Notes under the pieces: model-generated
The model's database searches: none
Told to the model about the DNA's origin: nothing
What the model saw: the letters and a program-made list of their open reading frames with translations, nothing else
Program-made: the position numbers and the translations under genes
Assembly (NCBI GenBank): GCA_036172245.1
Contig: JAYWIR010000050.1
Span: 1,054,001-1,118,000 of the forward strand
DNA from: Raillietiella orientalis
Taxonomy: Eukaryota
Direction of reading: 5' to 3'
Length of the DNA stretch: 64,000 nucleotides
Shown: positions 2,195 to 64,000 of the stretch, in pieces
How positions within the stretch are numbered: position 1 is the stretch's first letter
How the letters are laid out: each line of letters starts with the position of its first letter

Positions 2195-3530
2195 TATCTA
2201 GGTAAGATCCACGCCTATAAAATACAAATTTGATGACAGTGATAAAACTGAAACAGAAATTCAATATATCCAATTTTCCAATGTCTAAAATAAAAACGAA
2301 TACATGTTTTGGTTCAAAATTCTCAAGAATGTATATGATTTTAGCAATATGAAGCATTTAATTTTATAAGTGAAAACATGTAAGTTCATATATTCATATA
2401 GTATCTTTACTACAAACCTAGGCTGTACAAATTAAAAATCTGAAACAAGACTGCGCCATATTTCATGGAAATTCCTGAAGACTATAATGAGTTTTGTTAC
2501 TTTTTAGTTCAGTACTTCAATCAAAACAAATCAAAGGTTCTGTTACTTTCTAGTCCAGTACTTTTAGAAGATATGGCAGATCATCTGCTGATTCATAACT
2601 TGACGCTCTCTCTTTTGCACAAGCATGATCCATGTATATTGGTAAAGTAATTTGCACCCGTTTTTAAATGTCTCGACATGAAACCTCTTTCAGTCTCTGT
2701 TCCTGAATTCACAGGCAATTCAAAAAATGTATACACATGTAAGTAGCGTTACGTGTTAATTGCATCGAAAATTATGATACAGCCAAACACCAACTTTCTG
2801 AAGACAAAAAAAAACAATCTACACCTATCACCAAGCCGTTGAAATAATACATTCTGTGGCATATAGTACCACTGAGAAAAAAGTGCTGCACAGTGAAATA
2901 CAAAACATTCTGAAGTTCTTATGAATTCATAAAAAAACTGGGCAAACGGAGCGCAAAACGAATCCAACGAATAGCCCCAAGGGCTAGTTCTTCATCGAGG
3001 GGATCGAAAATGATTTTCAAAATGATTGCGGGCACCAAAACTCAAGTGATGCATAGCTGGAATTCTGAAAACCAAACTGGAGGAAACAATCCTAAATAGA
3101 AATGGGACATGCTGACATATACGTTTCATTTGATAAAGCAGCGTGTACAATACAACCATACGAAAACGGCAATTCGGGAACCTATGCAGGAACTAAACTA
3201 TAGGGACACAAAGTTTCCTATTCATACTGTGGAATGGAGACAGCTGCATTACCAAAATGCAAGGGGAACATGTCCAAACAGAAAAGTTTCAATAATGAAC
3301 GTCTGCCCATGGAAATAAACGCAACATCAATCTTCAAAACAATTCGAACACTGGGAAAAATTATCTCACACGACCGGTGCAACTGCAAAACCGAACGCAA
3401 AATACCATCTCTCCAACTTCAAGGAGGTGGAAAATGTTTTCCACATGTATTTTCCACGAAATCTATTGAGAAGAATGAAATCCTAAACTTTGCATTCACT
3501 AAAAAAAAAAAAAACTTGGATTTCTATACG

Positions 3531-3686
3531 TAGTATATATATATATACTACGTATAGAAAACTACGTATATATATGTATATATATATATGTATATATATG
3601 TATATACATATATACGTATATGTATACGTATATATATATATATATACGTATATATATTATATATATATATATAATATATATATTTA
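3531..3686. repeat. (TA)n microsatellite with TATACG/TATG interruptions
   Basis: Directly visible dinucleotide run. Confidence 0.95.
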
Positions 3687-6161
3687 TCTACACCCTCCAA
3701 TCAATGCTGCAGTTTGTTTTTGCATTCTGGAGACGAAATGTAAAATTTCGACAATTCATGGTAGAAACTCGTCTTTTGTAAGAGGATATGAAGATTCCAC
3801 TCAGCTTCGATAATCAAAAGTGATTGATATGGAAGAATACGTTCCATACCGATTGACAAAGACTTCAATTCAACGATGCAAAGGATTTCTAGGAAAAAAA
3901 ATGAAAAGAAGAAAAAAAAACATAAAAAGAAAAAAAAAAAACCATCCAGTTGCAGAAGTAACTTGTAGACAATCATGTAGATATTAAGACAAGCTTTTCT
4001 TATTCTTATTTAGATGTTTTTACACATTCTATTGCAAATGTAACAGTAGGCATTTGAACTCCTTAGCCTTAAACGTTTTTTCCCTTGTTATTTCGTTCAA
4101 TGGTGTTTCCTATTTAATGAACTGCGTTATTAAATGTGGACATATTCAAAAATTTTCTTTATTAGTAATGTGATCGTTTTGTACAGGTCAAAACAAACTA
4201 TATGCCACTAAACAATCTCTTTGCTGACCACATATCTGATTTCCAATTTCCCCTGCTTTACATTTACTGACAAAATAAATCATTTTCATTCCTGGAAAAA
4301 AAAATAAAAATCAGGCAGACTCGCACTGCTCGTTCATAATAAGGATAAGCCTATTGCGGTGACATCTTATCCTTAATACCGATGATGACCTAATAACCCT
4401 TCAAAAATCGGAGAATCCATTACTTGTACAATTCATGTACTCCGATCTGAATTCCAGTCATAAGTGGCAGAACCAATTTTGTCCTGAATCTTAATCATAG
4501 GCAATTTTAAAGTACTTAAGGGTTTCCTTAAATTCTGTATTTCATGCAGGATGCAATTCGCGCTGCAGAACTGTTGAAGAAACGCACTCAGTTTTTTCGA
4601 AAGCCGTCTCGGAAACAACAGAATTACTTTATTTCTTCTTATGGTTGCTCCGCAAAGAATACATTCTTGATTCTGTTATTCACTATGGATCGGTTTTTTT
4701 TCTTTCTAAATCAATGCTTGGCATCTCTGCTCTTATGGTGTTCATGCACCTGTTCTACTGTAGGGAACACGCAATTGTCTGGAAGTTCTGACTCGGAAAA
4801 ACCTGCCTGACTGATGGTTTGCTAAAACAAAAATATTTCCGCAGAATCGAATTGTACAAAGAGAATATAGTTCATATTTCAAGCGTTTCCAACTGCATAT
4901 AAGCATTTGTGCGAACAAGTTTATTGAACTCGAATTTGAAGCCTAGTTTTGAACAAAAATGCGTTCTCAATTAGTCTTATGATTACAATAATTCTCATAA
5001 TCTTCTATTTAATTGGATTCACTGATGACCAAACATATTCCAGTTTACTATCATTGCAAGGCTCCCTGCAACCTGGGGTGTTTAAAAAAGGTTTTTTCCT
5101 TCTTTTTGTGAAGGACGTGATCTCGAAAATCCATGCAAAACGTCTTTAAAAAATTGTAAGGTCTCCATAAATCATCATCAAATAAAACGCCTGAGGCAAT
5201 GTTTCGGCTCAAGTGCTTTTATGAAATTTGAGAGAGAAAGATATTTCTTATACATTGTGTATTACTCAAAAAGGTCGGAAACTAATCGTTATTAAGGATT
5301 TTTAGACTGTCTGAATGCAATAACTTCTTATTCTACCATTATTATTATTTTTCCGTTACTTTAATGGAGCAGCTATTAGCAGTATTGATAAGCCAGTTCT
5401 TGTGAAATTAACGTTAAGACCAAGACTTTTTCCTTGAATTCTGGAGCACAATTATTTCACCATTGGAAAAACAAGTCCGCTGAATCCATGAAACGGCTGA
5501 ATCTCAGTTAACGAAATGTTACGCCCTTTTAACTATGAAATGATTAAAACGAAAACACTGCATGTAATCAATAGTTTGGTGGTTTGAAGGGCAGTTCTAT
5601 CGGTGAAGACCAACTAATTCTTGGGATTCGTGGGGTGCTTGCTGCGTCAAAGTTTGCCTCATTTTCTGATAGCAAAAGGTCTCTCCGATCCAAGCAGATG
5701 AAGAGATCCCACGAGCGGATCACTAACTTGAAACTGCTCCCTTGAATTGACATTTTTTAATCCGAGCAAAAGGAAAATGGAAAAAAATATCCGCGTATGA
5801 AACGCAGAATAAACGCTGATCATAGATTAACTATTTCCGTGAATCACCGCAGACATACCATTCCAGCTCTCCGTATGCTTAGAGAAAATGCACATGAACT
5901 CTACTTTCCGACCTCCATTCATGGGTGAAACGACTGCTCAATGTTCCCTATTTTCCTTCTCTTAAAAAAGAGCGTGAGCATCGCCGAATGTTACAACCAC
6001 GTCTAGATAAACTGGAAACAGAAAGGCGATCGATCAGTGAGCATGGAGGCTTTGAAACCACATGACATCGTTTTTCTTTTAACTGAGAAATTTTCTGAGC
6101 AAATCCTGTGGAGATCACGCGTGCACGAGCTGCATGTGTTGAAATCAAAGGATTTCGGTAG

Positions 6162-6495
6162 TCTTCATGACAGGGGGGTACCCCGGGAGGGCTCCGCCCT
6201 ATGAATCCAGGAAGGACTCGGAGTCCGTTCCTCTCACGCCTGGGGAGGGATCCCCGGAAATGGAGTTCACCTCCACCCTGGTTGTCTCCAAAGGGGAATC
6301 CCGAAGAGAATCTCCTTCCTCATTCTCTCCGAAGAAAATCTCGTAGGGGTCCGCTCCAGTTTTTCTTCTCTGAAGGGAACCCGGAAAGGACCCGATCCTG
6401 GAGTTCCTTCTCCGGAAGGAGCCCCCGCAAGGGATCCGATCCTGTTTTTACTCCTCTGAAGAGAAACCAGGTTCCGAAATTCAGAAGGACGCAGT
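6162..6495 (-). repeat. Partial copy of the hairpin-array element at 45105-45940
   Basis: Reverse complement matches ~45530-45870, e.g. ccgccctatgaatccaggaaggactcggagtccgttcctct and accctggttgtctcc. Confidence 0.85.
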
Positions 6496-29583: not shown

Positions 29584-29999
29584 TTCTTATGGCAAACTTT
29601 ATCCGCAAACAGAAACTAAAATGCCACAACTTGACACACCAAGCTCTAGCACTGACATGTGTTTCGACACCTTTCAAAGTACACCAAAGTGGTGGTAAGT
29701 GCACCACAATGAGAGACCCTTCCAAGCAGATGTACGGCGGGCACACCGCATGGGAAACATCGCTCCCCTGGCAAGTCGCATTCCCAAGGCACGAATTAGC
29801 AGGGAGACCAGACAAAAATAATTCCAGTTCTCAAAGCCACACTGAGAGACAGCATCCCTTTGGCATTACGATTCTTCACATTTCTGTACATCATGGTTCA
29901 TCCTTCGATCTTTACATTTGCAATTCAATGTGCTGTTCTGTATGAATTTCTATTGAATGACAAACGGTACAACTGGTCGCATTTTCAAGGCAAGTACAT

Positions 30000-32020
30000 T
30001 TATCACCCGGATATGCCGGGGCATTTATTATTCTAATTTACAATAAAATTAGATAATAAAGTCTTTTAACAGTTTTTTGTGGAGGAACACTTGGTTCTCC
30101 CACGTTGGCTGACTTGTCGGGAACCGGTGCTGAGACCGGAGAGGTCCTCTCCAGAGGCGCAGGGGATGGGGAAACTGAAGCAAAAAGAGAAATAACGAGG
30201 AGGACATCCGTTATATGGGAAGTAGAGGGCAGGGAAGGGATCACTGGGCGCCTGGGTCGGTCCTTCGCATCCTATTCAGGATGCAGACAAGTTCTTTTGT
30301 CAGTGGAAGTAGACACCACCTTGTCGCCGTCTCCAAAGAGATCGTCGTCCAGTGGATGGCGTCCCTGCATCTTGGGCCTCTTCTTGCGTGCCACCTTTGC
30401 ACGATGCCGCGCACGCAGCAGAGGACTGCTAGAGACGCAGAGGGGCGCAGGCCGTCACGCAGAAAGACGCGTCGGTATATGACCTTAGGGTCGCCTACTG
30501 GAAGATGGAGGACGGGGCAAGTCGACTCCAAAGTGCGACAAGGGCAACACACTCGAAAGTAAGATGCGAGAAGGTTTCCCTTTCGCCGCACTCGACGCAG
30601 CGGGCATCCACGTCCCCCAGTGTCCAGTGTGACAGGCGTGTTCTGCTTAGCAGTCCCCAATGCAGAAAGAGCAACGCCGTCTCCTGCCACTTCAACGGGA
30701 GGGTACCGCTATCCCAACACGTTGGGGGCCACTTCACCTCCTCCGGAGGTATTACGAGCAGCTCTCCTCAGTGCACAATTCCTCGAGGCTCGGGGTGGCA
30801 GCGTCCGCTAGCTCCCGAGTCGTCCACGCCTTTAATGGTTTCCTCCTGCCTCGGATGAGGCAGGACACTTCCCACGGTGCTCCCTCGTTACTGCTCCTAA
30901 TGTTCTCCAGGGAGGACAGAACGGGGGCCAGGGGGGTGAAAGAAGCCCACAGAAACTTCCGCGGCTTGTTGATGATCTCCTGCAGGGGCTGTCGAGCGTT
31001 GGGTCCTCGGCGGAGGCAGTTGTACTCCGCCTCGCTCGTGCCGTTGATCTTGGCCCACACGGAAACTGACTCGTGAACCCAGGCAGTGCAGTTCGCGGGG
31101 AGGCAGGAGATCCAGGTATTTTCCCTCATCAGAGGGACCATCTGGCGCAGATGAAAGCCACAGTTGTTGTTGAGGCTGTGCTGGTAGGCCACGAGGATCG
31201 AGGACAATCCTTCGCAGCCGGTCGCTATTCTGGCGAGGAGCCGTAGGGGTTGGCACCATGGTGTCATCCATAAGCTAGCCGAAAGGGCTAGCTTCCGAAA
31301 GGTCACTTGAAGTTGCATGTGCTCCATCATCAGGAGGCCCAAATCACCGTCCCTGCGTGGAGCGCACAAGTCTTTCAAGAGGACTCATGACCTCGCTGTG
31401 CACCAAAGGGCAGTCCTCAGGAGGGCTTTGGTCCGTCTCTTGATGATTAGTGGGGCGGGGCAAACAAAAAGTAAGGGGCGAAGGAGGGGGGCCGCGAACG
31501 CGTTCCAAACCGCTGCCCGTTCCTGAAAGTAAAACTTGCAGTTCCGGAATGGGCCGATCGCCAACTCCACCTTTTAAAGACGGTCGGACGAGGCTTCTGC
31601 GACGCAGAAGTCCCCCAACGGAACGCCAAGGTACTTGAAGCACCTGCCCGTGGGGATCCCCAAGCGGATCCAGTCCGGCCGTCCGGCCCACGCCGTATTG
31701 GAAAAAAGCAGTGGTGATGTAGGAACGATTGTAGATTTTTCTCTGTTCACCTCGAGGCCCGTCCCGCGGCGCAGCAGCTCAAAGAAATCTTCGAGCGCCG
31801 ACGCCGGGGTGGACCCGGGGAGCAGGAGCAGAAGGTCGTCGGCATAGGCCGACACGGCAGGAGTGCCTGTACACGAGCTCGGCAGGGTTTCCAGAGTCTC
31901 CCTGTATGCCCTCAGCACCAACTCGAAGTAGATGCTGAAGAGCAAGGGGCTCAGACTGTCACCCTGCCTTATGCCTCGGAGAACCGGAACGCCGCACACG
32001 TGTCGGCCGCTGAAAGTGAT
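30000..32020 (-). mobile_element. 5'-truncated L1/Tx1-type non-LTR retrotransposon (family B), disrupted RT C-terminal half
   Basis: GIRQGDSLSPLLF, SAYADD, KYLG and C-terminal CVECGERETFSH..FEC motifs; 3' AATAAA plus hairpin at ~30030-30003; 12-bp TSD aggcaagtacat at 29988-29999 and 32021-32032. Confidence 0.92.
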
Positions 32021-38215: not shown

Positions 38216-39799
38216 ATGGAAGCGGTGCAGACGACGATGGCGATGGCGGAGGCGGCGCCCCCGTAGACGGCGGTCGCCGGAGCGACGGGAGGGCCCGTAG
38301 GCCCCACCGTTGCTAGTGACGCGACGCCATCTTGCGCGGTGGCTGCGACCGTGGGGCGGCCACCGGCAGCGGCGGCAGCTTTTTCTTATGCGGCGGTGGC
38401 GGCTGGGACGGCGACCACCCAGCCGCAGAGGAAATTCGGGAAGCCAGAGTCTGGGCCGATACGAGACATCGACGAGCCCATAATTAAACTAGGACCGAAC
38501 GTGAAGACGGTCACGTTCAAGACTGGAATTATAAAAATGAACAACATCAAAGAGGTATACCTGGCTCTCTACAAACAACAGGTGGACTTTGACCGCCTGC
38601 AGGCGATCGTCCCGAACACCTCGGGATTCACAGTGTACACCGACTGTGAAGAAATAAGGGAATCCCTAATTGAAAAAGGGATCAACATCCAGGGCAGGAT
38701 AGTGTGTGAAATGCCGTACACCACCCTATTCCTGAGCGGAATCGGGCCGTTCGTCACCCAAAGGGCTCTGTGGAGGAAACTGTCGCAGTACGGCGAGGTA
38801 CTGGACAGCAACTTCCACAATATATCGGGAAAGATCTTTTCGGGGGAGGCGACGGTGAAGATGAAGTTGAAGGAGGAAGCCCAGGTTCCTGGGATGATCT
38901 ACTTCGATGGGGACGACATGGGAGTCTCCGTTCGATATAGGGCGCAGCCAGTTTTCTGCAACAGCTGCAAAACCTTTGGACACCGGCAGCGAGTCTGCCC
39001 GAGGGCCAAGTGCTTCCGCTGTGGGAAGCAGGGCCACCAGGTGCGGGACTGCAGCATGCCGGAGGTGTGTTCGTTCTGCAAGTCTCCGGGGCATGCAAAG
39101 TGGTGCTGCCCGGAGTTTGCAAACTACAGAACGATGCGGGGTCAATCCCCAGTTAGGACACGGGTGTTGGAGGAGGTAATCAAACCTCAAAGGGCGATGA
39201 AGCAGAGGAAGGCGAAGGAGGCAGCCCCAGTTTCGGCGGACGGCTTCACCACAGTGGGGAAGGGCGGCAAGAGGAGGATGCTCGTGAAGGAGCAAGAATC
39301 CTCTGCTGCGCAGGTCGAGGAGCAGGTTGGCGAGAAGGCCGAAGTAGGGCAGGTTGGCGAGAAGCAGGGTGTGCCGGAAGGCGAGGTGATGGAAATCACC
39401 GAAACCGTTCCGACATCGCAGGAGGCGGTGCAGCTCACCGAGGAGGTGGTGAAGCTTGCGGAAGAAGTGGAGAGGGAGAAAAGTGAGGTGCAGCAGGAGC
39501 AACTCCTGACTCGCATCAATGAAACCCAACAGGGAATCAACACCCTGGTGATCCAAGAAGAGCGTGAAAAGCTAGAGAACCAGCTTTTCGAAGTGAAAGC
39601 GGCGTACTGCGCGAAGGTCTCCCTCGAGACACTTCCGCGCAAGGCGATCGCCAGGGCAGAACGCACAATGGAGACGGACCGGGTGTCCACAGACCACACC
39701 GGCACGGAGAGCGATGCCGGGAGTGAGAAGTCAGCTTCCTCGACGGTGAGACGCGAAAGGTCTCCCCGTCAGAAGAAGCTGAGGAAAGCGAAGCATTAG
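38216..39799 (+). pseudogene. Family A ORF1 (gag-like nucleic-acid-binding protein), in-frame TAG at 38264
   Basis: Three CCHC knuckles (CNSCKTFGHRQRVC, CFRCGKQGHQVRDC, CSFCKSPGHAKWC) after an RRM-like region. ATG 38216 is in frame with the 486-aa ORF but separated from it by one stop. Confidence 0.85.
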
Positions 39800-39814
39800 A
39801 CTTCGAACCCTTTC

Positions 39815-42800
39815 ATGTCCTCGTCGCTAGCGAACGCCGGAGGCTAAACATCACCTCCTGGAACATCAATGGATTGACAGACCAAGGCAAAAGGAAGACA
39901 ATCTTGCGGACTATCGCAAGACAAGACTTAGTGTGCCTACAGGAAACCATCATCTCGGACAACAAAACGCCCAGGAGATGGAACGCCGGTTCAACGGGCA
40001 ACTGTTTGTCAGCGAGGGACAAAGGAAGACCATGGGTGTGGCGATCCTCATCAAGAACGAGCTCGTCCACACCCTTCTGGAAACCTTCTGTCCACTCGCT
40101 GGAAGGATAATCGGCGTGCGACTGTCCTGGTCCGACAACGTTCACCTGTTTCTGGTGAACGTGTACGGACCGCACAAGAACAAGCATCGGTGCGCGGAGG
40201 CTCTCCACGAGGCACTCCGCCAACGTGTAGCACCGAAGGACATGGTCATCGTCGCGGGTGACCTGAATATTCAAGACCACATCAAGTACCGTCAAGACAT
40301 CAGAGGAAGAGAGGCGTATCGACGGTTGTCCGACGACTTCGGACTCGTGTGGCGAACAGCCAGCCACAAACCAATCGATCACGTCCTTCATAGCGTGGAG
40401 ATCGACAACCGAATCCAGGGTTTTCGCGACATTCCTCACCTGCTGTCCGATCACCCTTTGGTTCGGTTCTCCCTCCGCATGGAAAATCCGCGACGGCGAA
40501 AGGCCACTAGGGCGGCGCTCACCTGCATGCCCGCCTGGTTTGAGATGCTTCCCTGTCACCAGGAGGTGATCGAGCGATTCTGCGGGACACCACCATCCGC
40601 AGAGTCGCCGACTGGGACAGGTTGAAGCATCGGATCCACCTGTTCTGCAACATGCAGTACTTTTGCAAGCGACTGAGGCAAGAAGCGTACCAGGAGCTCA
40701 ACATCCAAGACCACTCCCTCTCCAAGTACTACGATCAGTACGAGAGTCGGTACGTCTTCAATAATGTGAAAGGGGAGGTCGGCGTGCTGGAAAAGAAGAA
40801 TCTGGCGACAGACATCTTCTGCATCCAGTACGGCGGCCAGAAGCGGCACACGTCGGAAGACATCGTGGGAGCATTCCATCAGCACTATGAAGAACACTTC
40901 CGACGGCAACACACGTGCAAGTCTATGTAGAGAACTTTCCTGAGCTACCTCGAGAAGAGGACAAGCGATCTCCAGAGAGACAAACTGGAGGAGAATTTCT
41001 CCGAAGATGAGGTGAAAACGGCTTTTGGGCAACTGCGGAAGGACGTGGCAGCGGGCCCTGATAGTGTACCCATCACGCACTATCAGCGGTACCTGCACGC
41101 CTACCTGCGCTTGTTCCATCAGCTCACTCTCTGCATCCGTGAAGAAGGAAGACTACCCGAGTCCTTCTACGAGAGTCGGATGAGATTGTTGCCGAAAGGA
41201 GGCGACCTCACGCAGGTCGCCCAATGGAGGCCAATCTCCGTCCTAAACTCCGATGCCAAATGGTTGGCGAAGATCTGGGCCAACCGCTTAGGCAAGGTCA
41301 TGCCAAAGCTCATCTCTCCGGTCCAAACATGTGCGGTGCCCGGACGCCACATGTTGGACAATGTCAAGTGTGCCCAGGCCACCGTGGGACTCAGCCGGTA
41401 CGTCGGCGAGGACCTGGTGCTGGTGTTCACTGACATGAAGAAGGCTTTCGACTCCATCGACCATGGGATGCTGCTGAAGATTCTGGACGAGCTGGGCCTT
41501 CCGGAATACTTCAGCACCTTCGTGAGATTGGTACTCGAGAACCAATACTACCGAATCAAGATCAACGGCGAAGACACGACAGCAATTAGGATGGAACGAG
41601 GAGTCCGCCAGGGCGACTCGCTAAGTCCTATGCTGTTCGTTATTTACATGGAGGCGCTGTCCTCGTACATCGAGAAGAGTGGACGCCTCCAAGGCATCCA
41701 GATCGACGACCAGCTGCTCACCCACCTGGCGTACGCTGATGACCTTCTCTTCTTCGTCAAAGGAGAACGAAATCAGCGTGCGTTCCTGGAAGTGGTGACG
41801 CTCATGGAAGAAGGACTAGGATTAAAGATCAATGCAAGGAAAAGCCAACTTTTGCCCGTCGGAATCCTGGACCTCTCCGTCCTCACGGGGAGAGGATTCC
41901 GAACGGTGGATACAGCCAAATACCTGGGAGTCTACATTGGCGACGGCCCTGCGTCGAAGCTTTTGTGGGATGAAACCCTGGGGAAAACGGCGAAAGACGC
42001 AGCGAAGTACACCCGACAGGACCTTGGAATGAAACGCAAGGCCAACCTCTGGAATGGAGTCCTCCTTCCTAAGGTGCTCTTCGGGGCGGCCTTTGCGAGA
42101 GTGAAAAGGAACACCTCGAGGGAGCTGGAAAAACTGCAAAGGAAGACATTATGGGGCAAATATCGCCCAAGAGTTCGTTTGAAACCCCTATGTCGTCCCA
42201 AAGAAGAAGGTGGAACCGGGATGAAGTCGCTTGCACACTCCATGGCAATCATGGACACGCGACACATCCTGGATATCGCCGAACAATGGGACGACTGGCC
42301 GTACGCGGCGCATAGGGCCTACTCGATGTTGCTTAACAACTCGAAAGGTCTGATGACTGCGCTGCTAGGCCGACTAGGGGAGTGGATGACCATCGACCCG
42401 ACCTGGAGGAGGAAACAACTGCTGGTACGAAAGTACAAGATCAAGATCGTGCCAAGAAGCAGGGAACTCTGGCAACAGGAGTCCATCCTCGTGATCCCTT
42501 GGATGCTTCCGGTCCCGGACGATACCCGAGGATGGATCTACCGGCGGCACAGAGTTACCTTGCAATGAATCCAGGAATGGAGAAAAGGAGGCCACCTACA
42601 TCATGTTCGTATACTTCGGTATATCGAGAAGATGCTAGGTAGGTTCACCCACCGGACCCGCGAAGTGTGGATAAACCACGATGACTTTGCGTGGTCCAGG
42701 GTAACCAAAACAAACCTCCGAAGAATGATAAAGGATCAAGATGAAGACACCAGTACCCTCCAGGAAGCGGCCAATCGCTACGGAAGCAACAGGATCAACC

Positions 42801-43330
42801 TGTTGGCGATCGGCACGACCCTATGGAAGAGTGACCTTCCGCCGGACAGCCAGGACAACCTCCTGATGTTTTATCACGGAGGAATCCTGAGCGGGTCCGG
42901 ACTAAAGTACTTCACAAGAAGAAGAGGAGACGAAGACTGCCCAGCATGTGGAGACACGGATACCAGACTTCACATCCTGACGTGTCCCACATTGCTCCAC
43001 GACTGGCTGATCCTTAAACGGATCATTGGACGCACCACCAGTTCCACGATGGAGATCCTAGCCGGGATGTTTCAGGGAGATGGTAATGTTCCCTGTTACA
43101 ATCCCATGGTGAGGACGACCATTGCCCTCTTCATCACTGCCATTCTGGTGCGGTGGTGGAAGATGAGGAAAGCCAGGAGAGCCGCACCTCCGATGGAGAT
43201 CCTGCAAGGACTCCTGAAGAAGGAAATCGGCATAAGAAATTGTGGAAGGCGAGCAGCCTGGACGTACAGACTCATCCTTAGGAGGATTGAAGACGACGCC
43301 CGGGACCAAACACCCTCATACCCACCCTAA
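39815..43330 (+). pseudogene. Family A ORF2 (APE endonuclease + RT + CCHC), disrupted
   Basis: SWNING, LQET, GDLN, IDHV, SDH; WRPIS, KAFDS, GVRQGDSLSP, YADD, KYLG; CPACG..HILTC. Frameshifts near 39838, 39950 and 40575; stops at 40928 and 42566. Confidence 0.92.
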
Positions 43331-43883
43331 GTGCAGAACTTCAGTGAATCCCAAGGACTTCCAGTGAATACAGAACAAGTAGTGTATTGTATGAATGTGA
43401 CTGTAGTGTGAATGATATTAAAAAAATGGAAATAAATTTACCCCACCCCTTGTGGGACCTGGGAAAAAAAATAAATAAATAAATTATTGCATTGTTGATA
43501 AAGATTGTCGAGGAAAACGACCTCCCTATTATTAAAATATTTCGATATTTAAATTGTGATTTTTGTAATGCAGCAGCAACTGTTCTGAGTATTTAATTAC
43601 AATGTACAGACTTCTCACGTTTTGTATTAACTATAGCTAATAAGACCATCAGTACGGCGTTCGATACGTTTGTAAGGAGAGCAGCAGCAATAGTTTAAGA
43701 ACATAAATTTCACGTGATCAACAATTAATTCTCAGTTTGCATTTTACTTTTGTATTATTCTGTCTGAAGCTTAAATCACATTATGTGACATAATAATAAT
43801 AATAGTAACAATGAGAATAATAATAAATTCCTAGGTCTGGAGATTTCTTTGGAAAATCGCGGGTTTACGAGCACCATCTAGGG

Positions 43884-44692: not shown

Positions 44693-46218
44693 CGCTCTGC
44701 GTCCTGTTACGGATGCTGACAAGTGCTACTTTAGTATTATTCCGGTGGGGCCACCTTGTCGCGGCCTCCAAGAAGATCGTTGTCCAGTGGATGGCGTCCC
44801 TGCTTTTTTGACCTCTTCTTTCGCGTTCCACCTTGCCAGGATGCCGCGAGCACCGCAGAGAACTGCAAGAGACGCAGCGGGGGGGTAGGGCATCACTCAT
44901 GAAGAGGCGCCGGAAAATGTCTTTCGGGTCGCCTACTGGAATATTGAAGCTGGATGATAGTCGATCCCAAAGTTCAACAAGGGCGACACACTCTATTAGG
45001 AGATCCCTTTCACCGGACTCTGAACAACAGGCATCCACACTCCCAAGTGTCCAATGAGAGAGACGTGCTCTGCATAGGAGGCCCCAATGCAAGAAGAGGC
45101 CTGCGTCGGAGGCTTTGTGGTTAAAGCTTCCGCGCGTGGCACCATGCGTCGCGGGTTCGAATACTTCGGCAGATAACTGACGCCACTGTGTCGTTGGGTT
45201 CCGTAGTTGCAATGGCGCTGGTTGGCCTAATCATTCGGACGTGGCACTGGCGGTGGATTAAGCCGGAGACCACCGATGAAGGCCGGAACAATGAAAGTCG
45301 ACCTTCGGGTCCTTCCAGGAATAAAGGAGTGGGGAGTTCCCCCTCCTGTCGTACAACGGAGAGCGGACCCCCATCACCGGGTGACCGCCTCCGGTTTCAA
45401 GATGGAGCAGGAGCCCTCACGGGCACCTCTCCAGTTGTTCAAAGGAGTGGACCACCCTGTTGGGGGGTCCCTCCGAGTCGTTGCCTCTCCAGAAGAGTGC
45501 AAGGAAGCACGCGACAGCGATCCCCCTGCGGGAAGCAGCAGCGTCCCTTCGGACTTCTCTTCGGAGCAGTGAACACGAGCGGTTCCCTTGCGGGTTCCCT
45601 CCGGAGAAGAAATTCCTACAAGCGGATCCTTTCCGGGTTCCCTTCGGAGAAGTTGAAATGGAAAGGAACATCCCCCATTAGGGGGGTGCCCCTCCGGAGA
45701 GAATGAGGAAGGAGATTCCCTTCGGGGTTCTCCTTCGGAGACAACCAGGGTGGGAGGTGCGATCCCCCCCCGGACGGGGGGGATCCCTCCCCAAGCGTCA
45801 GAGGAACGGACTCCGAGTCCTTCCTGGATTCATAGGGCGGATCCCGGGGTGTCCCCTATCCTGAAGAATTACACGCCCCCCTGCGGGTTGCCGTGGGCGG
45901 AGAGGCGTGGAAACAAAAAGAACCCAAGGATTTCCATCGTCCGTCTCTTGCCACTTCACTGGAAGGGTGCCACTATCCCAGCACGCTGGGGGCCACTTCA
46001 CCTCCTCCGGAGGTATTCCCCTCCCCTTTTTGAATCTTTTTGTTTTATTTTTTGTTCGAGTTTCCCCTTCCCCTCGCCCTCCGAGAGGACCTCACCGCTC
46101 TTAGCATCATTTGATGACAAGTCTTCGAGCGTGGTTGATCAAACATCATTACAGACTTCATTATAAGATTTTTGTATAAAAATTCTAATAATAAATGCCC
46201 AGGCACATCCGGGTGATA
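44693..46218 (+). mobile_element. Family B copy with 5' inversion, interrupted by an ~830-bp insert
   Basis: Antisense ORF2 segments 44693-45104 and ~45941-46015, sense 3' UTR ~46016-46218; 9-bp TSD aacaaagtt at 44684-44692 and 46219-46227. Confidence 0.82.
45105..45940 (+). mobile_element. Putative tRNA-derived SINE-like element with a mini-hairpin array
   Basis: Head 45105-45170 has acceptor-like GTCGGAG/CTTCGGC, D-arm GCTTT-GTGGTT-AAAGC and B-box GGTTCGAATAC; it splits a family B ORF between KWQET and AGLFLH; partial second copy at 6162-6495. Confidence 0.6.
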
Positions 46219-48462
46219 AACAAAGTTTCCTTTTCTCTTTTTGGTTTGTATTGCACATTCCAAAGTATCAACCTATTTCTTTGTTTCCTCTAAACTTGAG
46301 TCACTAGTGCTTGGCATACTTTCAGTACCATCACACCTTTTCTCCTGAATGTTGTACCTGCCTCTGCTAAAGAAGGTTAAAAGGTTTTGCTGTTTGTTTG
46401 ACTTTCGACTCCGTTTTTGTGGAATTTAAAATTCCACGAAAGAAAATACTTCTTTTCGGAAATAGCACAACACGGTATCAGAAAAGAACACTGACGAGCG
46501 CGACGAACGGAAAACTTGAGGGCCGCCTCACCGACGGGCGAGCTGACGCAACACTGCCGTCCGGCGGCCGCGCACTTCGCGCGTGCTTGGGGCGTTCCAT
46601 TGTTGCGTGCGGCCGCACGCTCGCCCCGCAACAATGCGGCGTCCGGATCGCGCAGCTGCCACGTGATTGGTGGGGTATTTTTGGCGGATCGCCGCCGGGA
46701 AGTTTCCGCGGAAGAGCGCTAAGCAGAGGCGTTCCACCAACTGCTGTTGCTGCTGGCAACTTCGGAAATGCTGCCGAAAAATTAGGGCGATCCTAAGGTC
46801 ACCTGGGAAAACAAATTCTAACGGGAATTTTGCTTTTGAGATTCTTCTTTTTGACCTGTGATCGCTGGATCACGGGTTAAAAAGGAAAAAGAGGAAAGAA
46901 CAAAAAGTGTTCCGCGGCGGATTAGGAAAGTTCAACTCTTCAATTCCACTTTATATCCATTTTTATTTACCATTTAAATTATTGATAATGAAAATGCGTT
47001 GAAAAGGAAGAATTGACTATTTTGTGTAGCTGCATTAAAAGTCCTGCAAATGCAAACAATTGTGAACTAGGCATGAAAGGAAATTCAAATTAACATGTAG
47101 CAGCTGTTTTTTTTGAAATATGTTTATAGTTTCATGTATTTTGGAATGATTTGCGTTGGCTTTATTTGATAAGTAATAAACAAGAAGGTATACTTAATTT
47201 CAGTTTGTTAATTATGTAGTTATGCATAACGAAGAAATGGAGGTTCTCTGATGATTTCTTCCCAGACAAGGAGGGATTTCATAGTGGTTGCTCTATCATT
47301 AAATTTCCAATCATGCCTATCCATAGTCTAAAATCTCGATGCTGTCAGCACTCCATGCAGAATGTATGATATGCTAGTTCTAGCAGTCATCATATTTAGT
47401 TAAATGGTTGAATTTCTTATACATACCCCGGATTTTCAACTACTCTCTATTACATTTCTCAAGTACACAAGCTACAAACGGTTGCAATCAAGAGATTTCA
47501 CATTTTTGATTTGTGTTTCCCTCTTTTACTATGATTTTCCCATACTAAAATGTTCAAAAGTAAATGGAGGGGTGGTTAACTTATTTGTCTGATTTTCAAG
47601 GCTTATAGCATTTTGAGGTTTATGATATCAAGGACAGTCCTTGAGACAACGGCAGTCTGTAAACAATTAACTACGAATCTCAGGCTTGAAGAAACTAATA
47701 AATGCCTGGCAATTCAAGTAATTAAGGCAATATTTATGAACTGGAATTTCCAAACTGCTTTGAGTACTTTTGTGCTGCAGGCTTGCTGCAGTCATCGCAG
47801 TGATGATGGATGCAGCTTGAAACTATTTCAAAAGTGTAAATCATATTGTTGCAAATTGTTCAAGACAAGTGGTATCTAGAGTATGCAATTCAGATTACAA
47901 AAGATGGTTATTTGATATAAGTTTTAATTTCATCTGGTTGATCAGTAAGTTCTTTGAAACTTTGAATTCTACATGCATCATCAAAACCAAAGCAATGAAA
48001 CATCATCATACTTGTTGTTTCTGTTATATTGCCTGGAAATATTGTATCAATGGTTACTATTTTAAACATCATATAATCTAATTAAAGATGCCACAGTTTA
48101 TTTTTGCACACTACTCTTCTAAGAAGCCATGTTTTACTTTAAGTTCTGAGCTTGAAATGTAGAATACCCAACCTTTCACTTTAATAATCTTGCATTTTAC
48201 CTTGGTGTAACACCTGGTTAGTGTGCATTTCTTATCTTATATCAGACAGCATGAAAATCTAAATTAATTGGTCACTCTTTAAATTAAATTGACTTATTAG
48301 ATGAATAAAAGTAATCAATAATATAATGAATTGATTCTCTTAAGGTTTTGAATTCCTTTTATTATGGAAATGTTACAAGTATTCACCCCTGATGCAGTTG
48401 TTGTGCATTTAATACTTTTAAGAATGATTGGAGTGAATCACCAACTGAAACCAAAGTTTGGG

Positions 48463-54238: not shown

Positions 54239-54347
54239 AACTCACAACCATCCATAAAACATACATTGTCTACATGTTGCTGCCCACTTGTCGTATGTGA
54301 AAAAGACAAAATGCTAAACGTCGTTCCCTTTCTTTTTCTTTCTTGCT

Positions 54348-54379
<32 letters not shown>

Positions 54380-54891
54380 CAAAAACAAAAAAAAAAAACC
54401 GAAAGTGAGGATTGACAATTCTACTTTGTTTTGAACGTAATATAGTGAGATGTGCTCATTATTCACGCACAATCAACAAAAATGTAACCGTTACAGCACT
54501 GCAAGTTTCAAAGAAGCACATAAGCACATAGGGATGGAAGGGAAAGCAAAACAAAACAAAAAAAGTGGTGTCGATAAATAGAAAGGACCCGTTCCTGTCG
54601 CTACAAATGAGGCAAATTGCAAAAGAAGGATAGTTCGTGCGTGAGCACTCATTTGCCTGACAGCGAGAGGACTTCCGCCGTTCGAAAATTTTTGCACAGT
54701 TCTTCGTTCTGTGCTGCATCGGCACGTGGACGTGAATGGGCCAGGGGTCATGAGAAATTCCTTGGTCTCACTCTTGCCCTTTGAAGCACAAACTCGAAAG
54801 CACGAGGCGACAACGCGTTCTGAACGCAGCACTTGCAACAAACTTCAGCTAGGACCGCACACACCAAACGTCGGAAAAAAGAAAGAAAGAG

Positions 54892-59245: not shown

Positions 59246-59249
59246 CAAT

Positions 59250-62200
59250 TTTCCCCAAGTCTTACAAGGGGTGGGGTAAATTTATTTACCTACAATTCAA
59301 ACACTTTCATTTGCACTGTTTGGGGTTTCAAAAGTTTCTGTACTTTAAGGTGGTTTCCTTCGTGTTGTTGCCTGAGCGTCGTCCTCAATCCTCTTGAGGA
59401 TGTAACGGTACGTCCAGGCCTGGACTCTACCACAATTCCTAATGCCTATCTTCTTCTGGATTAATCCTTGGAGAATCTCCATCGGAGGTGCGGCTCTTCT
59501 GGCTTTCCTCATTTTCCTCCACCGCACAAGTATAGCGGTGATGAAGAGGGCTATGGTCGTCCTTACCATCGGGTTGTAGCAGGGAACATTTCCAGTTCCC
59601 TGAAACATCCCGGCAAGTATTTCCATCACTGAAGTGGTGTTCCTTCCTATGATCCTTTTCAGGATCAGCCAGTCTCGAAGCAGTGTGGGACATGTCAAGA
59701 CGTGTAGTCTCGTATCTATGTCTCCACATGCCTGGCAGTCTTCATCTTCCCTTTTTCCAGTGAAGTACTTTAATCGTGATCCACTCAGAATTCGTCCACG
59801 GTAAAACATCAGGAGGTTATCCTGGGTATCCGGTGGAAGGTCACTCCATAGCGTCGTGCCAATCGCTAACAGGTTGATCCTGTCACTCTCGTAGCGATCG
59901 GCGGCTTCCTGGAGGGCACTGATGTCTTGGTCCTCTTCTTCTATTATGCGACGGAGGTTCTGTTTATTCACTCTGGACCACGCAAAGTCATTGTGGTTTT
60001 TCCACACCTCGCGTGTCCTATGGGTGAATCTCCCTAACATCATTCTCTATAAACGACACCCAGGTGATTAAGTGCAGTGAACCTTCCAGAGACCCAGAGA
60101 AGCAGACTTCAAGTGAACACTAGTGAACTCATATGCAGTTTTTGTGCAATTTGTATGAATGAGATTGTAGTATGAATGAAAAAAGAGAAAATAAATCCAC
60201 CTCACCCCTTGTGGGACTTGGGGAAACTCTCTATATACTGAAGTATACGAGTATGATGTAGGTATCCTCCTCTTCTCCATTCCTGGATTCGTTGCAGGGT
60301 AACTCTGGTCCGCTGGTAGATCCAGCTTCTCGTGTCCTGGGGCACTGGAAGCATCCACGGGATCACCAGGATGGATTTCTCCTGCCAGAGTTCCTTGCTT
60401 CTGGGTACGATTTTAAGTTGGTGTTTCCGTACCAGTCGTTGTTTTCTCCTCCAGGTGGGGTCAATGGTGAACCATTCCCCTGCTCGACCCTCTTCTAGCA
60501 GTGCAGTCATCAGGCCTTTCGAGTTGTTTAACAACATCGACTTCCTTGGGATGACACAAGGGTTTCAGTCTTACTCTAGGGCGATAAGTGCCCCATAGGG
60601 TCTTACGCTGTAGCTTTTCGATCTCTCTTGTGATTTCCTTATTTGTTCTGTGGAAGGATGCTCCGAAAAGTGCCTTTGGAAGGAGTGCTCCATTCCAGAG
60701 GTTAGCCTTCCTCTTCATTTCAAAGTCTAGTTGCGTGTATCTTGCTGCTTCCTTTGCTATTTTCCCTGAGATTTCTGTCCACAGGAGCTTCGAGGCCGAA
60801 TCGTCGTCGATGTGGACTCCTAGGTGTTTGGCAGTATCCACCGTTCGGAATCCTCTCCCCGGGAGCACATAAAGATCCAGGATTCCAACAGGCAAAAGCA
60901 TTGATTCTGGGCATTGATTTGTAAGCCCAATCCTATTTCCATGAGCTCGACCACATTTAGAAGTGCTTTCTGTTCTCGTTCCCCCTTGATGAAGAACACG
61001 AGGTCGTCTGCGTAAGCTAAGTGTGTGAGCTTCTGGCCGTCAATGTTAGTCCCGTGTAACTGTCCGCTTCTGTAAATGAAAGACGACAGTGCCTCCATGT
61101 AAATGACGAACAGCATTGGACTCAATGAGTCGCCTTGACGGACTCCCCGTTCCATCCTGATAGCTGCCGTCTCTTCACCGTTGATCCCAATTCGGAAGTG
61201 CTACTTCCGGAGTATCATCCTTCTTACAAAGTTGCTGAAGTATTCCGGAAGGTCCAGCTTTTCCAGAATCTTCAGCAGCATCTCTTGATCAATAGTATCA
61301 AAGGCTCTCTCCATGAATCAAAGGCTCTCCTTCCAGTCAGTGAATACCAACACTAGGTTCTCGCGATAAATCGACAGAGTCCTGTAGTGGCTTGAGTACA
61401 CTTGACGTTGTCTGACATGTGGCGTCCGGGCACCGCACATGTCTGGACAGGAGAAATAAGCCTCGGCATTACTTTGCCTAAGCGGTTGGCCCAGATCTTT
61501 GCCAACCACTTGGCATCTGATTTCAGGATTGAGATTGGCCTCCATTGGGCAACCTTGGTTAGGTCGCCTCCTTTTGGCAGCAATCTCATCCGACTCTCGT
61601 AGAAGGATTCTGGTAACGGTCCTTCTTCTCGAATGCAGAGGGTCCGCTGGTGGAACAAACGCAGGTAGGCATGCAGGTACCGCTGGTAGTGCGTGATGGG
61701 AACACTGTCAGGGCCTGTCGCCACATCCTTGCGCAGAAACGCAGCCTTGACCTCTTCGGAGAAATCCTCTTCCATTCTCTTCTGCTGAAGGTCATCCATC
61801 TTCTTCCCTAAATGTTTCGTGAAGACTTTTTGATTTGCAAAACACAATTGTTGTCTTTGGAAGTGTTTCGTGTAGTGCCTTTGAAAGGTATCGACGATGT
61901 CTTCCGTTGTATGTCGGCTGTAGCCGCCGTATTGGATGCAGAAGATATCCGTTGCCAGCTTCCTCTTTTCTAGTACGCCGAATTCCCCTTTAACATTTCG
62001 GAACACGTACCGACTCGCGTACTGTTCGTAGTACCTTGAGAGTGAGCGGTCTTGGGTATTCAGCTCTCGGTACGCTTCCTGCCTCAACCTCTTATCTCCG
62101 AACTGCATATTGCAGAATAAATGGACCCTATGCTTCACACTGTCCCAGTCGGCGACCCTGCGGATAGTTTCATCTGGCAGAATCGCCTCGATGACCTCCT

Positions 62201-63430
62201 GGTGGCAGGGAAGCGTCTCGAACCAGGCGGGCATGCAGATGAGCGCCGCCCTGGTAGCTTTGTTTCGCCGAGGATTCTCTGTTCGTAGGGAGAACCGCGC
62301 CAACGGATGATCGGACAGCAAAGTTCGCATGTCACGAAATCCTTGTATGCGGTTCTCGATTTCCGAACTGTGCAGGACGTGGTCGATCGGCTTGTGGCTA
62401 GCTGTTTGCCACTGAAGTCCGCAATCATCGGACAGCCGCCGATACGCCGTCCTTCCTCTAGCGTCCTGGGAATGAGTGATCTTATTCAAAATATTGAGGT
62501 TGCCCGCGATGATGATAATATCCTTTGGTGCCACTCGTTTGCGGAGCGCTTCATGCAAGGCTTCCGCGCATCGATGTTTTAGTTTGTGTGGTCTGTATAC
62601 GTTCACCAGGAACAGATGAACTTTGGCGGACCACGCTAGCCGTACGCCAACAGTTCGCTCCAACATTGGACAGAAGGTTTCCAAAATGGTGTGGGCGAGC
62701 TCATTTTTAATGAGGATCGCCACACTCATGGTTTTCTTTTGTCCTTCGCTGACAAACAGTTGGCCGTTCAAGCGGCGTTCCAAGTCGAGGGTGATCTGGT
62801 ATCCCAGCTTGTGTGTTTCTTGTAAACATATTATGTCCTGTTGTGCGATGATCCTTATAATTTCTTTTCTTTTTCCCTGGTCCGTCAGTCCGTTAACGTT
62901 CCAGGAGGCGATGTTAATTCTCCTGGTGATAGATAAGAACGAGGCCATGAGGGGTTGGTTTTATTTTTTAGTTCTTCTGGTCTTCATCCGCCGAGGAGAA
63001 ACCTTCTTTCTCCCAGAAGCAGAAGGCCTTTCGCTTCCTGCATCGCTTTCTGTGCCAGTGAGGTCGGTGGTTTCTGCTCCTTGTTCCGACTGCTCACTGG
63101 CACTGGGTGGAAGCTTCTCAAGGCTCACCCTTTCGCAATATTCTGCTTTCACTTTAAGAAGCTTGTTCTCCAGCTTTTCACGATGGGTCACCTCCACCGT
63201 CCTGTTAATGTCGTCCTGGACTTCGCAAAAACGTCGAATTAATTGTTCTTGATCCTTCTTTCTCGCGATTTTTCCCCGCTGGACATCTTCTGCTAGCTTC
63301 TCTAATTCTTCGGCAACCTGCAGACTTTCCTCCGGTGCCGTGACACATTCTACCTCTACACTTTTGAAGTCCGCCATCACGCTTTCTCTACTGCTTCCTT
63401 TAACTCTTTTACCTTCTCGGGGATTTCCTT
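59250..63430 (-). mobile_element. Diverged family A copy (ORF1 3' part, ORF2, 3' UTR), disrupted
   Basis: ORFs 62948-61353, 61155-60820, 60901-60461 and 60043-59345 align with ORF2 of the 38-kb element; the ORF1 tail TGTESDAGSE is shared; 3' end aataaatttaccccacccc. Confidence 0.93.
60052..60227 (+). mobile_element. 3'-UTR-only family A insertion nested in opposite orientation
   Basis: Resembles ~43310-43465; flanked by tctctata at 60044-60051 and 60228-60235. Confidence 0.85.
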
Positions 63431-64000
63431 TTACACCCGGGTGCGCCGGGGCGTTTATTTTTTAGTAAAAACAAACAAGCAAGTGTAGGGCTATTGCCCC
63501 TACAGCGTCCTAAAAAAATGTTCTAATAAAGAGTCTGAAATTGCCGAGTAGCAAGCACGCAGGCTGGCGAGTTCGACTCGGCAGCGGGGGGGGAAAGGAC
63601 AAATAAAAACAAAAAGAAAACACTATTTACAAAAGCAGGGAGGAGTTGGGGAAGCGATCACATTCCGCTGGAGTCGTCCTCTACATCCTTTCCAGGATGC
63701 CGGCAAGTTCGGTCCGCATATGCCCCAAATGGGACCATCTGGCTGCCGTCCTTAGGAAATGTAGGGCGGAGCAGATGATGTCCCTGTCGTTCAGTCCACC
63801 AGTGGCGGTGCTCCAGGCCGCCACAATCCCTCGTAGGCAGCAAAGGGCTGCGGCAGGCCGAAGGGCGTCACGCACAAAGAGGCGCGTCAGAACGTCTCTA
63901 GGGTTGATCGTGGGTGCTCCTAGGGCCGTTGCGAAACGCAACCACAGAGACCGGAGGGCAACACAGTCAAGAAGCAGGTGCGTGAGGGTTTCCCGTTCCC
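63431..64000 (-). mobile_element. Family B 3' portion (runs off the window), abutting family A ORF1
   Basis: RLFVRDALRPAAAL..ICSALHFLRTAARW resembles the 30-kb copy; 3' end aataaacgccccggcgcacccgggtgtaaa. Confidence 0.85.

Follow-up and report, generated by a model that had tools for sequence, protein, structure and literature searches.

A deleted copy of a ~1.1-kb SINE-type retroposon with a hairpin-array body, and its likely tail-less source gene, in Raillietiella orientalis

The window, 64,000 nt at positions 1,054,001-1,118,000 of contig C50 in the ~210-Mb genome of the animal Raillietiella orientalis, contains host genes identified by Pfam (CCCH zinc finger, FIT, TLDc and proteasome subunit), whose best matches are mainly arthropod with only 60-65% identity. 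It also harbors two L1/Tx1-like LINEs, designated LINE1 and LINE2; these names, like the unit numbers of the hairpin array, are working labels. LINE1 occupies 38267-43470 on the plus strand and displays in Pfam searches a zinc-knuckle ORF1, an endonuclease and a reverse transcriptase, followed by an A tail. A second LINE1 copy, 74-82% similar to the first, lies at 59249-63460, and both share the zinc-knuckle ORF1 and a short 3' hairpin. The LINE2 family is found at 29999-32015 and 44751-46220, with several hairpins in its 3' UTR. Two local inverted repeats were also noticed, at 3521-3691 (~170 bp) and 54325-54408 (~85 bp).

The element under study lies at 45099-45942 on the plus strand and interrupts a minus-strand LINE2 fragment, whose left part (44751-45098) is 76% similar to window 30316-30671 and whose right part (45941-46017) is 90% similar to 30677-30753. 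The empty paralogous site of the insertion corresponds to 30671-30677, with a small number of bases exchanged or lost at the junction, and an inverted LINE2 3' end follows on the plus strand at 46049-46220 (68% to 30186-29999). The first-pass annotation had placed an element at 45105-45940; a real element is present there, with both ends slightly displaced. It is a deleted and 3'-truncated copy of a ~1,050-nt family, 93% identical to the first consensus, covering consensus positions 1-850 and 987-1011. No target-site duplication surrounds it. A CACGCC/GGCGTG stem had been taken to close the element, but full copies extend ~200 nt beyond it and the window copy has instead lost positions 851-986, ending at 1011, short of the terminal hairpin of the family. 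The remnant of its 3' linker (45918-45942, plus strand) ends at a truncation hot spot of the family, and window 45935/45936 is the equivalent of the site at which a LINE subfamily has inserted in older family members. The diverged copy previously reported at 6.2-6.5 kb is also real: it is an older, headless and tailless fragment on the minus strand (6162-6465, consensus 453-800), 78-80% alike, in which the similar layout attributed to it holds only for the body.

The tRNA-like head of the window copy (45099-45172, plus strand), defined by its sequence, tRNA identity and fold, includes a B-box-like word at 45154-45164, and its first 42 nucleotides (45099-45140) are predicted to refold into one long 5' hairpin. 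Comparison with a partial set of 58 distinct host tRNAs revealed 60-64% identity over 70-74 nt with tRNA-Gly, tRNA-Thr and tRNA-Asp, the values being 63.9% over 72 nt for tRNA-Gly(GCC) and 63.5% over 74 nt for tRNA-Thr(AGT). The resemblance to tRNA-His proposed initially was not supported, as this tRNA reached 58.7% and ranked 21st-32nd of the 58. ARAGORN detected no tRNA in the window or in 8 family loci. An Rfam search of the window and two full copies gave nothing near the gathering score, which agrees with the initial statement that no described family was recognized.

The array itself (45293-45909, plus strand), delimited by self-similarity, unit tables and alignment, consists of ~14 related units of 25-45 nt, each able to fold as a hairpin with a purine-rich GGAG arm, a small bulge, an inner stem, a variable loop and a CTCC arm. 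The mini-hairpin stems first listed are present in the sequence, such as GACC-TTCG-GGTC at 45300-45311, and short perfect hairpins number 20 in the window copy against 11.2 +/- 3.1 in shuffled sequences (1 of 500 shuffles). The folding z score against shuffles is -4.9 on the plus strand and -5.3 on the minus strand. The word CTTCGG occurs 7 times against 0.42 expected, a count reached by none of 500 dinucleotide shuffles; these words are not independent, because all are repeats of one unit. Many cUUCGg loops had been described, and the words do exist, but loop formation is predicted at only one of the six consensus sites, that at 45300-45311 (plus strand), where the word persists in 73 of 82 copies. 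The pairing probability of this first loop is 0.97-0.99 in the consensus and in the putative source locus described below and 0.18-0.33 in the window copy, while the others do not exceed 0.07. As the source locus has in addition lost two of the six sites, a special role of UUCG or GAA loops finds no support. The most variable hairpins are those with C/G runs, and the array likely grew by duplication of a ~40-nt hairpin unit. A derivation of this unit from the 3' hairpin of LINE2 was considered weak, since 20 of 500 shuffles and 3 of 98 coding windows score as high, and an nhmmer comparison of the two returned nothing. In place of local unit hairpins, the equilibrium fold predicts long helices joining different units. 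Global folding also predicts a long-range helix between consensus positions 97-117 and 974-995, with a probability of up to 0.97-1.0, which would enclose the whole array as one domain; its 5' side lies at window 45195-45210 and its partner is partly kept at 45918-45926.

A genome search with the window element returned at least 45 matches among the 40 scored of 3,602 candidates. A 19-nt head pattern gave 2,340 genome matches (control 0), a number that includes older relatives because 2 mismatches were tolerated, and a 23-nt terminal-hairpin pattern gave 125 (control 0). Duplicate loci (L031, L033, L044 and L060) were removed before copies were counted. A consensus built from 83 copies measures 1,055 nt, and the 66 full copies have a median of 1,052 nt. 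From 5' to 3', the tRNA-like head is followed by the ~14 related bulged hairpins, an A-rich linker, the bulged terminal hairpin and a T-run, to which an A tail is usually added. The T-run stands before the A tail, and a run of 6 A is missing in 15 of the 92 copies that reach the 3' end. Target-site duplications of 11-20 bp, most commonly starting with AA, flank 33 of 66 full copies versus 6 of 66 shifted controls. Co-occurrence of head and array had been set beforehand as a test of the family, and both are found together in 35 of 37 loci; these were sampled in their listed order from the matches of the head pattern, after removal of L223, L233 and L238 from 40, and L229 and L236 are not among the 35. 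The ~830-nt or circular RNA considered initially is not supported, the unit being linear and ~1,050-1,095 nt long with a fixed 5' end. These data show that the family is a real retroposon of SINE type, over-long and built around a hairpin array, and support the initial reading of a structured, mobile RNA of Pol III type, unusually long for a SINE. Its synthesis by Pol III is deduced, the box-like words and the T-run stop being indications only; the lack of an internal T4 was discarded as a further sign, as 39% of shuffles also lack T4.

Hairpin units have been gained and lost between copies. One copy, L043, is a mosaic with an L054-type segment (consensus 69-98) within an L078-type body, which suggests template switching or gene conversion between source lineages. 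Older relatives, ~65-70% alike (L135, L211:1-740, L212:310-1520, L132 and L289), carry a second B-box-like segment and different sets of units with the same terminal hairpin and T-run; L132 and L289 may be older source loci, because they have flanks in common and no A tail. Two loci, L232 and L233, stop at consensus 834 and continue with the reverse complement of a related head, with an identical downstream flank. Portions of the family are present in two public sequencing runs, X1 and X2, neither of which is listed as RNA. In X1, 124 short contigs were found, mostly less than 95% alike; over L058:600-1750, loose contig ends carry hairpin-unit arrangements absent from L058, which may belong to other subfamilies or to a related species. 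A metagenome scan gave a single chance match, to unrelated sequence, and viral contigs gave none. No description of the family was found in the literature searched, Dfam and Repbase lying outside the comparison.

One locus, L054, differs from the other copies in several respects. It is located on the minus strand of contig C6 (5,520,685-5,519,594), measures 1,092 nt and ends in T5 followed by unique DNA, with neither an A tail nor a target-site duplication, and its flanks are unique among the fetched loci. The tail-less state is not unique to it, because of the 15 copies without the 6-A run mentioned above. L054 displays 46 non-consensus letters, which are common in nested sets to ever younger copies, and only 4 private changes (0-15 in other young copies). 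A TATA-like word is present at -30; among the 119 copies with intact heads, such a word within -34 to -22 occurs in L054 alone (1 of 79 and 0 of 40). Upstream flanks of host tRNA genes (L133, L136-L165) show a TATA-like block near -33 to -28, followed by a purine-rich stretch. Against the -33 to -1 flank of one U6 gene, L054 scored best of 79 copies (28; mean 4.2, SD 5.2); it was not the best against the flank of the second U6 gene and ranked 5th of 79 on a tRNA-flank matrix. Its stop, a T-run followed by GG, is the same as in both intact U6 genes, and no PSE-like block is common to L054 and the U6 genes.

Analysis of X2, a run with no recorded kind whose contigs total 62 million letters, revealed one 955-nt family contig and no other copy. 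This contig covers consensus 17-931 without flank. Among its 40 listed substitutions, 1 could not be mapped, 17 correspond to the consensus and 22 are non-consensus letters, 21 of which are those of L054; the next best of the 83 copies shares 16 and none of 57 further loci more than 14. One letter shared by X2 and L054 occurs in no other of the 83 aligned copies and in none of the 57 further loci. RNA data would be expected to yield just such a single locus without flanks. The contigs of X2 show no strand, start or level; expression of L054 is what we infer, with the X2 contig as a possible transcript. Two young lineages are 93-95% identical to L054 and 98.7-98.8% identical internally, with differing flanks, which implies that other copies also serve as sources; to judge from these sequences, at least two copies other than L054 have recently done so. 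We regard the stretch in the window as a defunct member of a SINE-type retroposon family of ~1.1 kb, for which the tail-less gene on C6 is probably the main source at present, and L054 would likely be a master gene resembling BC1/BC200.

Several observations bear on how copies arise. Among the 37 head-sampled loci, full length is reached by 2; several stop within the first A-tract, and in 5 the end falls at consensus 1008-1011, following GTC or ATC just before the terminal hairpin. In L238 (G000:C7:651295-652700, minus strand), the 3' half of U6 is joined to a near-full element within one 13-bp target-site duplication, and the 48 U6 matches in the genome indicate that it retro-copies Pol III RNAs. 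According to the portion of PMC4476161 consulted, L1 acting on small RNAs produces poly(A)-extended, 3'-truncated ("tailless") and U6-chimeric copies. All three types occur in the present family, which differs from those L1-made snRNA pseudogenes in having a kilobase RNA as template. Compared with the same account, truncation at single-stranded positions is not significant in the family (p 0.057 for unpaired positions, 0.35 for exterior loops), and truncation points are slightly A-rich (p 0.022). In the mechanism that we propose, Pol III would start at +1 of L054 through the TATA-like word and the internal A and B boxes and would stop in the T5 run, yielding an RNA of ~1,095 nt to be copied by an L1/Tx1-type reverse transcriptase. 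Full copies would result from priming on poly(A) added after the U-run, copies ending near 931 from priming on the internal A-tract, and tailless copies, such as that of the window, from priming on short internal matches. LINE1, with a young subfamily of at least 15 copies that are 94-100% identical at the 3' end, is a candidate supplier of the reverse transcriptase; 14 further copies match the one at 38267-43470 by 94-98% at this end. No LINE tail common to the family was found, and a tail shared with LINE1 was rejected, the loop resemblance being lost in the older LINE1 subfamily.

The family is also a landing site. Of the best 30 matches to a LINE2-type 3' UTR, 23 have an older family body upstream on the same strand, versus 1 of 38 and 1 of 11 control loci. 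In 18 of the 30, the family linker ends at consensus 1004-1020 and is followed by LINE pieces of ~220-1,050 nt, and visual reading shows target bases recurring on both sides in at least 8 junctions. The junction is seen again in L292, a locus retrieved for a different purpose. The pieces, seen in L259-L288 (e.g. L262:974-1700, L263, L265, L268, L269), L292 and L216, are 5'-truncated to many lengths at one site. This site lies just 5' of the terminal hairpin and was hit in full and in already truncated family copies. Since it coincides with the truncation hot spot, one endonuclease or priming preference may explain both insertion and truncation. The idea that the terminal hairpin is a LINE2 tail was rejected, because the LINE2 pieces are insertions located at that hairpin's base.

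The C6 locus could also be a host RNA gene with a cellular job, either regulating translation in the manner of BC1/BC200 or serving as an enlarged scaffold akin to 7SK, and its copies would then be mainly processed pseudogenes. We consider this possible, if rather unlikely. It accords with a single, untailed, TATA-flanked locus having the stop of the U6 genes, with the ladder of nested copies, with a terminal bulged hairpin and T-run kept in relatives only ~70% alike, and with copies that are mostly 5'-intact and 3'-truncated, as are the snRNA pseudogenes in the consulted part of PMC4476161. Moreover, no Arthropod_7SK exceeded the cut-off in the genome among the 22 of 3,456 candidates scored, 3 weak matches lying below it. 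Against it stand the other young source lineages (99% identical internally), a source lineage lying 46 sites off the consensus, as many as dead copies, the lack of any family match to the 7SK and Arthropod_7SK Rfam models at E<=10, and the missing PSE.

Whether the structure of the source RNA is under selection was examined from the substitutions, all counts excluding the A-rich columns 844-872 and 921-995. Variants present in at least 8 copies cost +0.29 kcal/mol each versus +0.96 for rare ones (118 versus a sample of 300; p 0.0017), and 7 near-identical partner copies were left out of the per-copy energy comparison. The gap between common and rare variants gave p 0.0002 away from C/G runs, 0.003 for transversions and 0.24 for transitions. 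On the 83-copy tree, pairs survived inherited changes more often than private ones (odds ratio 1.77, p 0.001); on the inherited branches, the excess of C>T is also seen at unpaired sites (37 versus 14). Two source lineages lost no folding energy, an outcome matched in 0 of 60 simulations each, the figure for L054 being 1 of 60; the signal is missing for the L081 lineage (14 of 60) and for transitions. The energy effect is equal in size for the two strands, and the simulated null goes beyond what old copies really show (0.62 versus ~0.95 kcal/mol per change). Compensatory changes in the stems, expected at the outset, did not appear as length co-variation of C-runs and G-runs in the three units parsed. 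No signature of ADAR (A>G 16.2 versus T>C 16.0 per 1,000) or of CpG was detected, CpG sites changing no faster. Taken together, these comparisons provide moderate evidence for the retention of stems in source RNAs with varying loops, suggestive of selection in the source lineages, and the stems would likely be kept for compact, stable folding of the source RNA and not for particular loop sequences. A mutational cause of the energy signal is possible.

An alternative is an ordinary multi-source SINE with a neutral palindromic minisatellite body, in which stems persist by unit duplication and template-switch repair and L054 is a young copy that landed by a TATA-like word. The gain and loss of units, the variability of the C/G-run hairpins, the strand symmetry of the energy signal and its absence for transitions are in line with this explanation, as is the number of private changes of L054, which resembles that of other young copies. 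We nevertheless hold it to be quite unlikely, given that inherited transversions spare stems (p 0.003), that only 1 of 119 copies, L054, has the TATA-like word and that the sole X2 contig matches this locus down to its rarest letter. A circular RNA of viroid or retrozyme type, inserted in the genome, which the high structure content and the 3'-end hot spot after GTC/ATC (5 of 37) might evoke, is very improbable in view of the fixed 5' end, the absence of permuted, terminally repeated or head-to-tail monomers among aligned copies, the lack of a self-cleaving ribozyme (no ribozyme family at E<=10 save a 12-bit archaeal RNase P fragment, and by inspection only degenerate look-alikes of hammerhead or HDV-like ribozymes, without an intact hammerhead core) and the lack of viral-contig matches.

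Few source genes of SINE families are known to have been traced to one locus, BC1 being the textbook example. In the present family, the candidate source gene can be set letter by letter against its nested copies and a possible transcript, which opens both the master-gene model and the idea of selection on the RNA structure of SINEs to direct testing in an invertebrate. If L054 is the source, the scattered copies would record the evolution of its RNA. The family is ~400 nt longer than the SINEBase (2012) range, and a LINE subfamily uses it as a place to land. What the present case adds is a candidate source gene, a moderate signal of selection and a LINE with a specific insertion site. Should the RNA serve the host, it would count as a new large Pol III RNA; otherwise, it stands as an instructive extreme within an already known class. 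More tentatively, and with little expectation that it will prove right, the C6 locus might be a long-lived, domesticated kilobase Pol III RNA gene of an arthropod lineage, combining a multivalent ~14-hairpin scaffold, an A-rich PABP-type platform and a La/LARP7-type 3' hairpin. Such a gene would have arisen independently of BC1/BC200 or replaced an unfound 7SK; its retrocopies would be a dated record of structural evolution, used by a site-specific LINE as a safe harbour.

Regarding known classes, the main text of PMC3531059 describes in SINEBase 175 families of 75-662 nt, with a working limit of <1 kb. Like these, the present family is interspersed and non-tandem, with at least 100 copies on many contigs, a head that reaches 60% or more identity to tRNA over no fewer than 60 nt, and copies that found subfamilies, as seen in the two young lineages. 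Its A tails, target-site duplications and U6 chimera correspond to the non-autonomous, LINE-retroposed state; overlapping frames are open in both orientations. With a consensus of 1,055 nt and 1,092 nt for L054, it exceeds the length given there (<700 bp; limit <1 kb), and is for this reason filed as SINE-type and not as a SINE under that definition; the range is that of the main text, and the supplementary SINE tables could hold longer families. As in the tRNA-related SINEs treated in the consulted part of the same article, including the quasi-oligomeric CHRS, a tRNA-like head, a body whose origin is unknown and an A-rich tail are found in more than 100 dispersed copies. The variable number of internal repeats is also shared with CHRS, whose repeat is a 20-nt motif, unlike the 25-45-nt hairpins of our family.

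BC1 is described as the master gene of ID repeats (PMC1802616, PMC13034634, in the parts available to us). Like BC1 and BC200 in these reports, L054 is a single locus with A and B boxes, an upstream TATA-like motif, a SINE-like 5' part, an internal A-rich stretch and a unique 3' part, without terminal poly(A). It differs in being five to seven times longer, in its hairpin array, in its invertebrate host and in the absence of homology, and other copies of its family also appear to be sources; the likeness is one of sequence layout. As in 7SK, to the extent of the accounts drawn on (PMC4381077, PMC8406779), a presumed Pol III product is predicted to carry a hairpin at its 5' end and, ahead of uridines, a bulged one at its 3' end. 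Unlike 7SK, the family has no M1 pairing, its 5' end being predicted to pair locally with positions 32-42, and no PSE; it has an internal B box and is ~2.5-3 times longer. Finally, the pages of PMC4494074 used here describe Tx1-clade LINEs that target other repeats, Tx1 in Tx1D and Tx1-Mar in Mariner-N4_AMi. The LINE subfamily found here has likewise inserted repeatedly at one site of another repeat, a likeness that rests on targeting and not on clade assignment, and its target, unlike theirs, is a SINE-type family.
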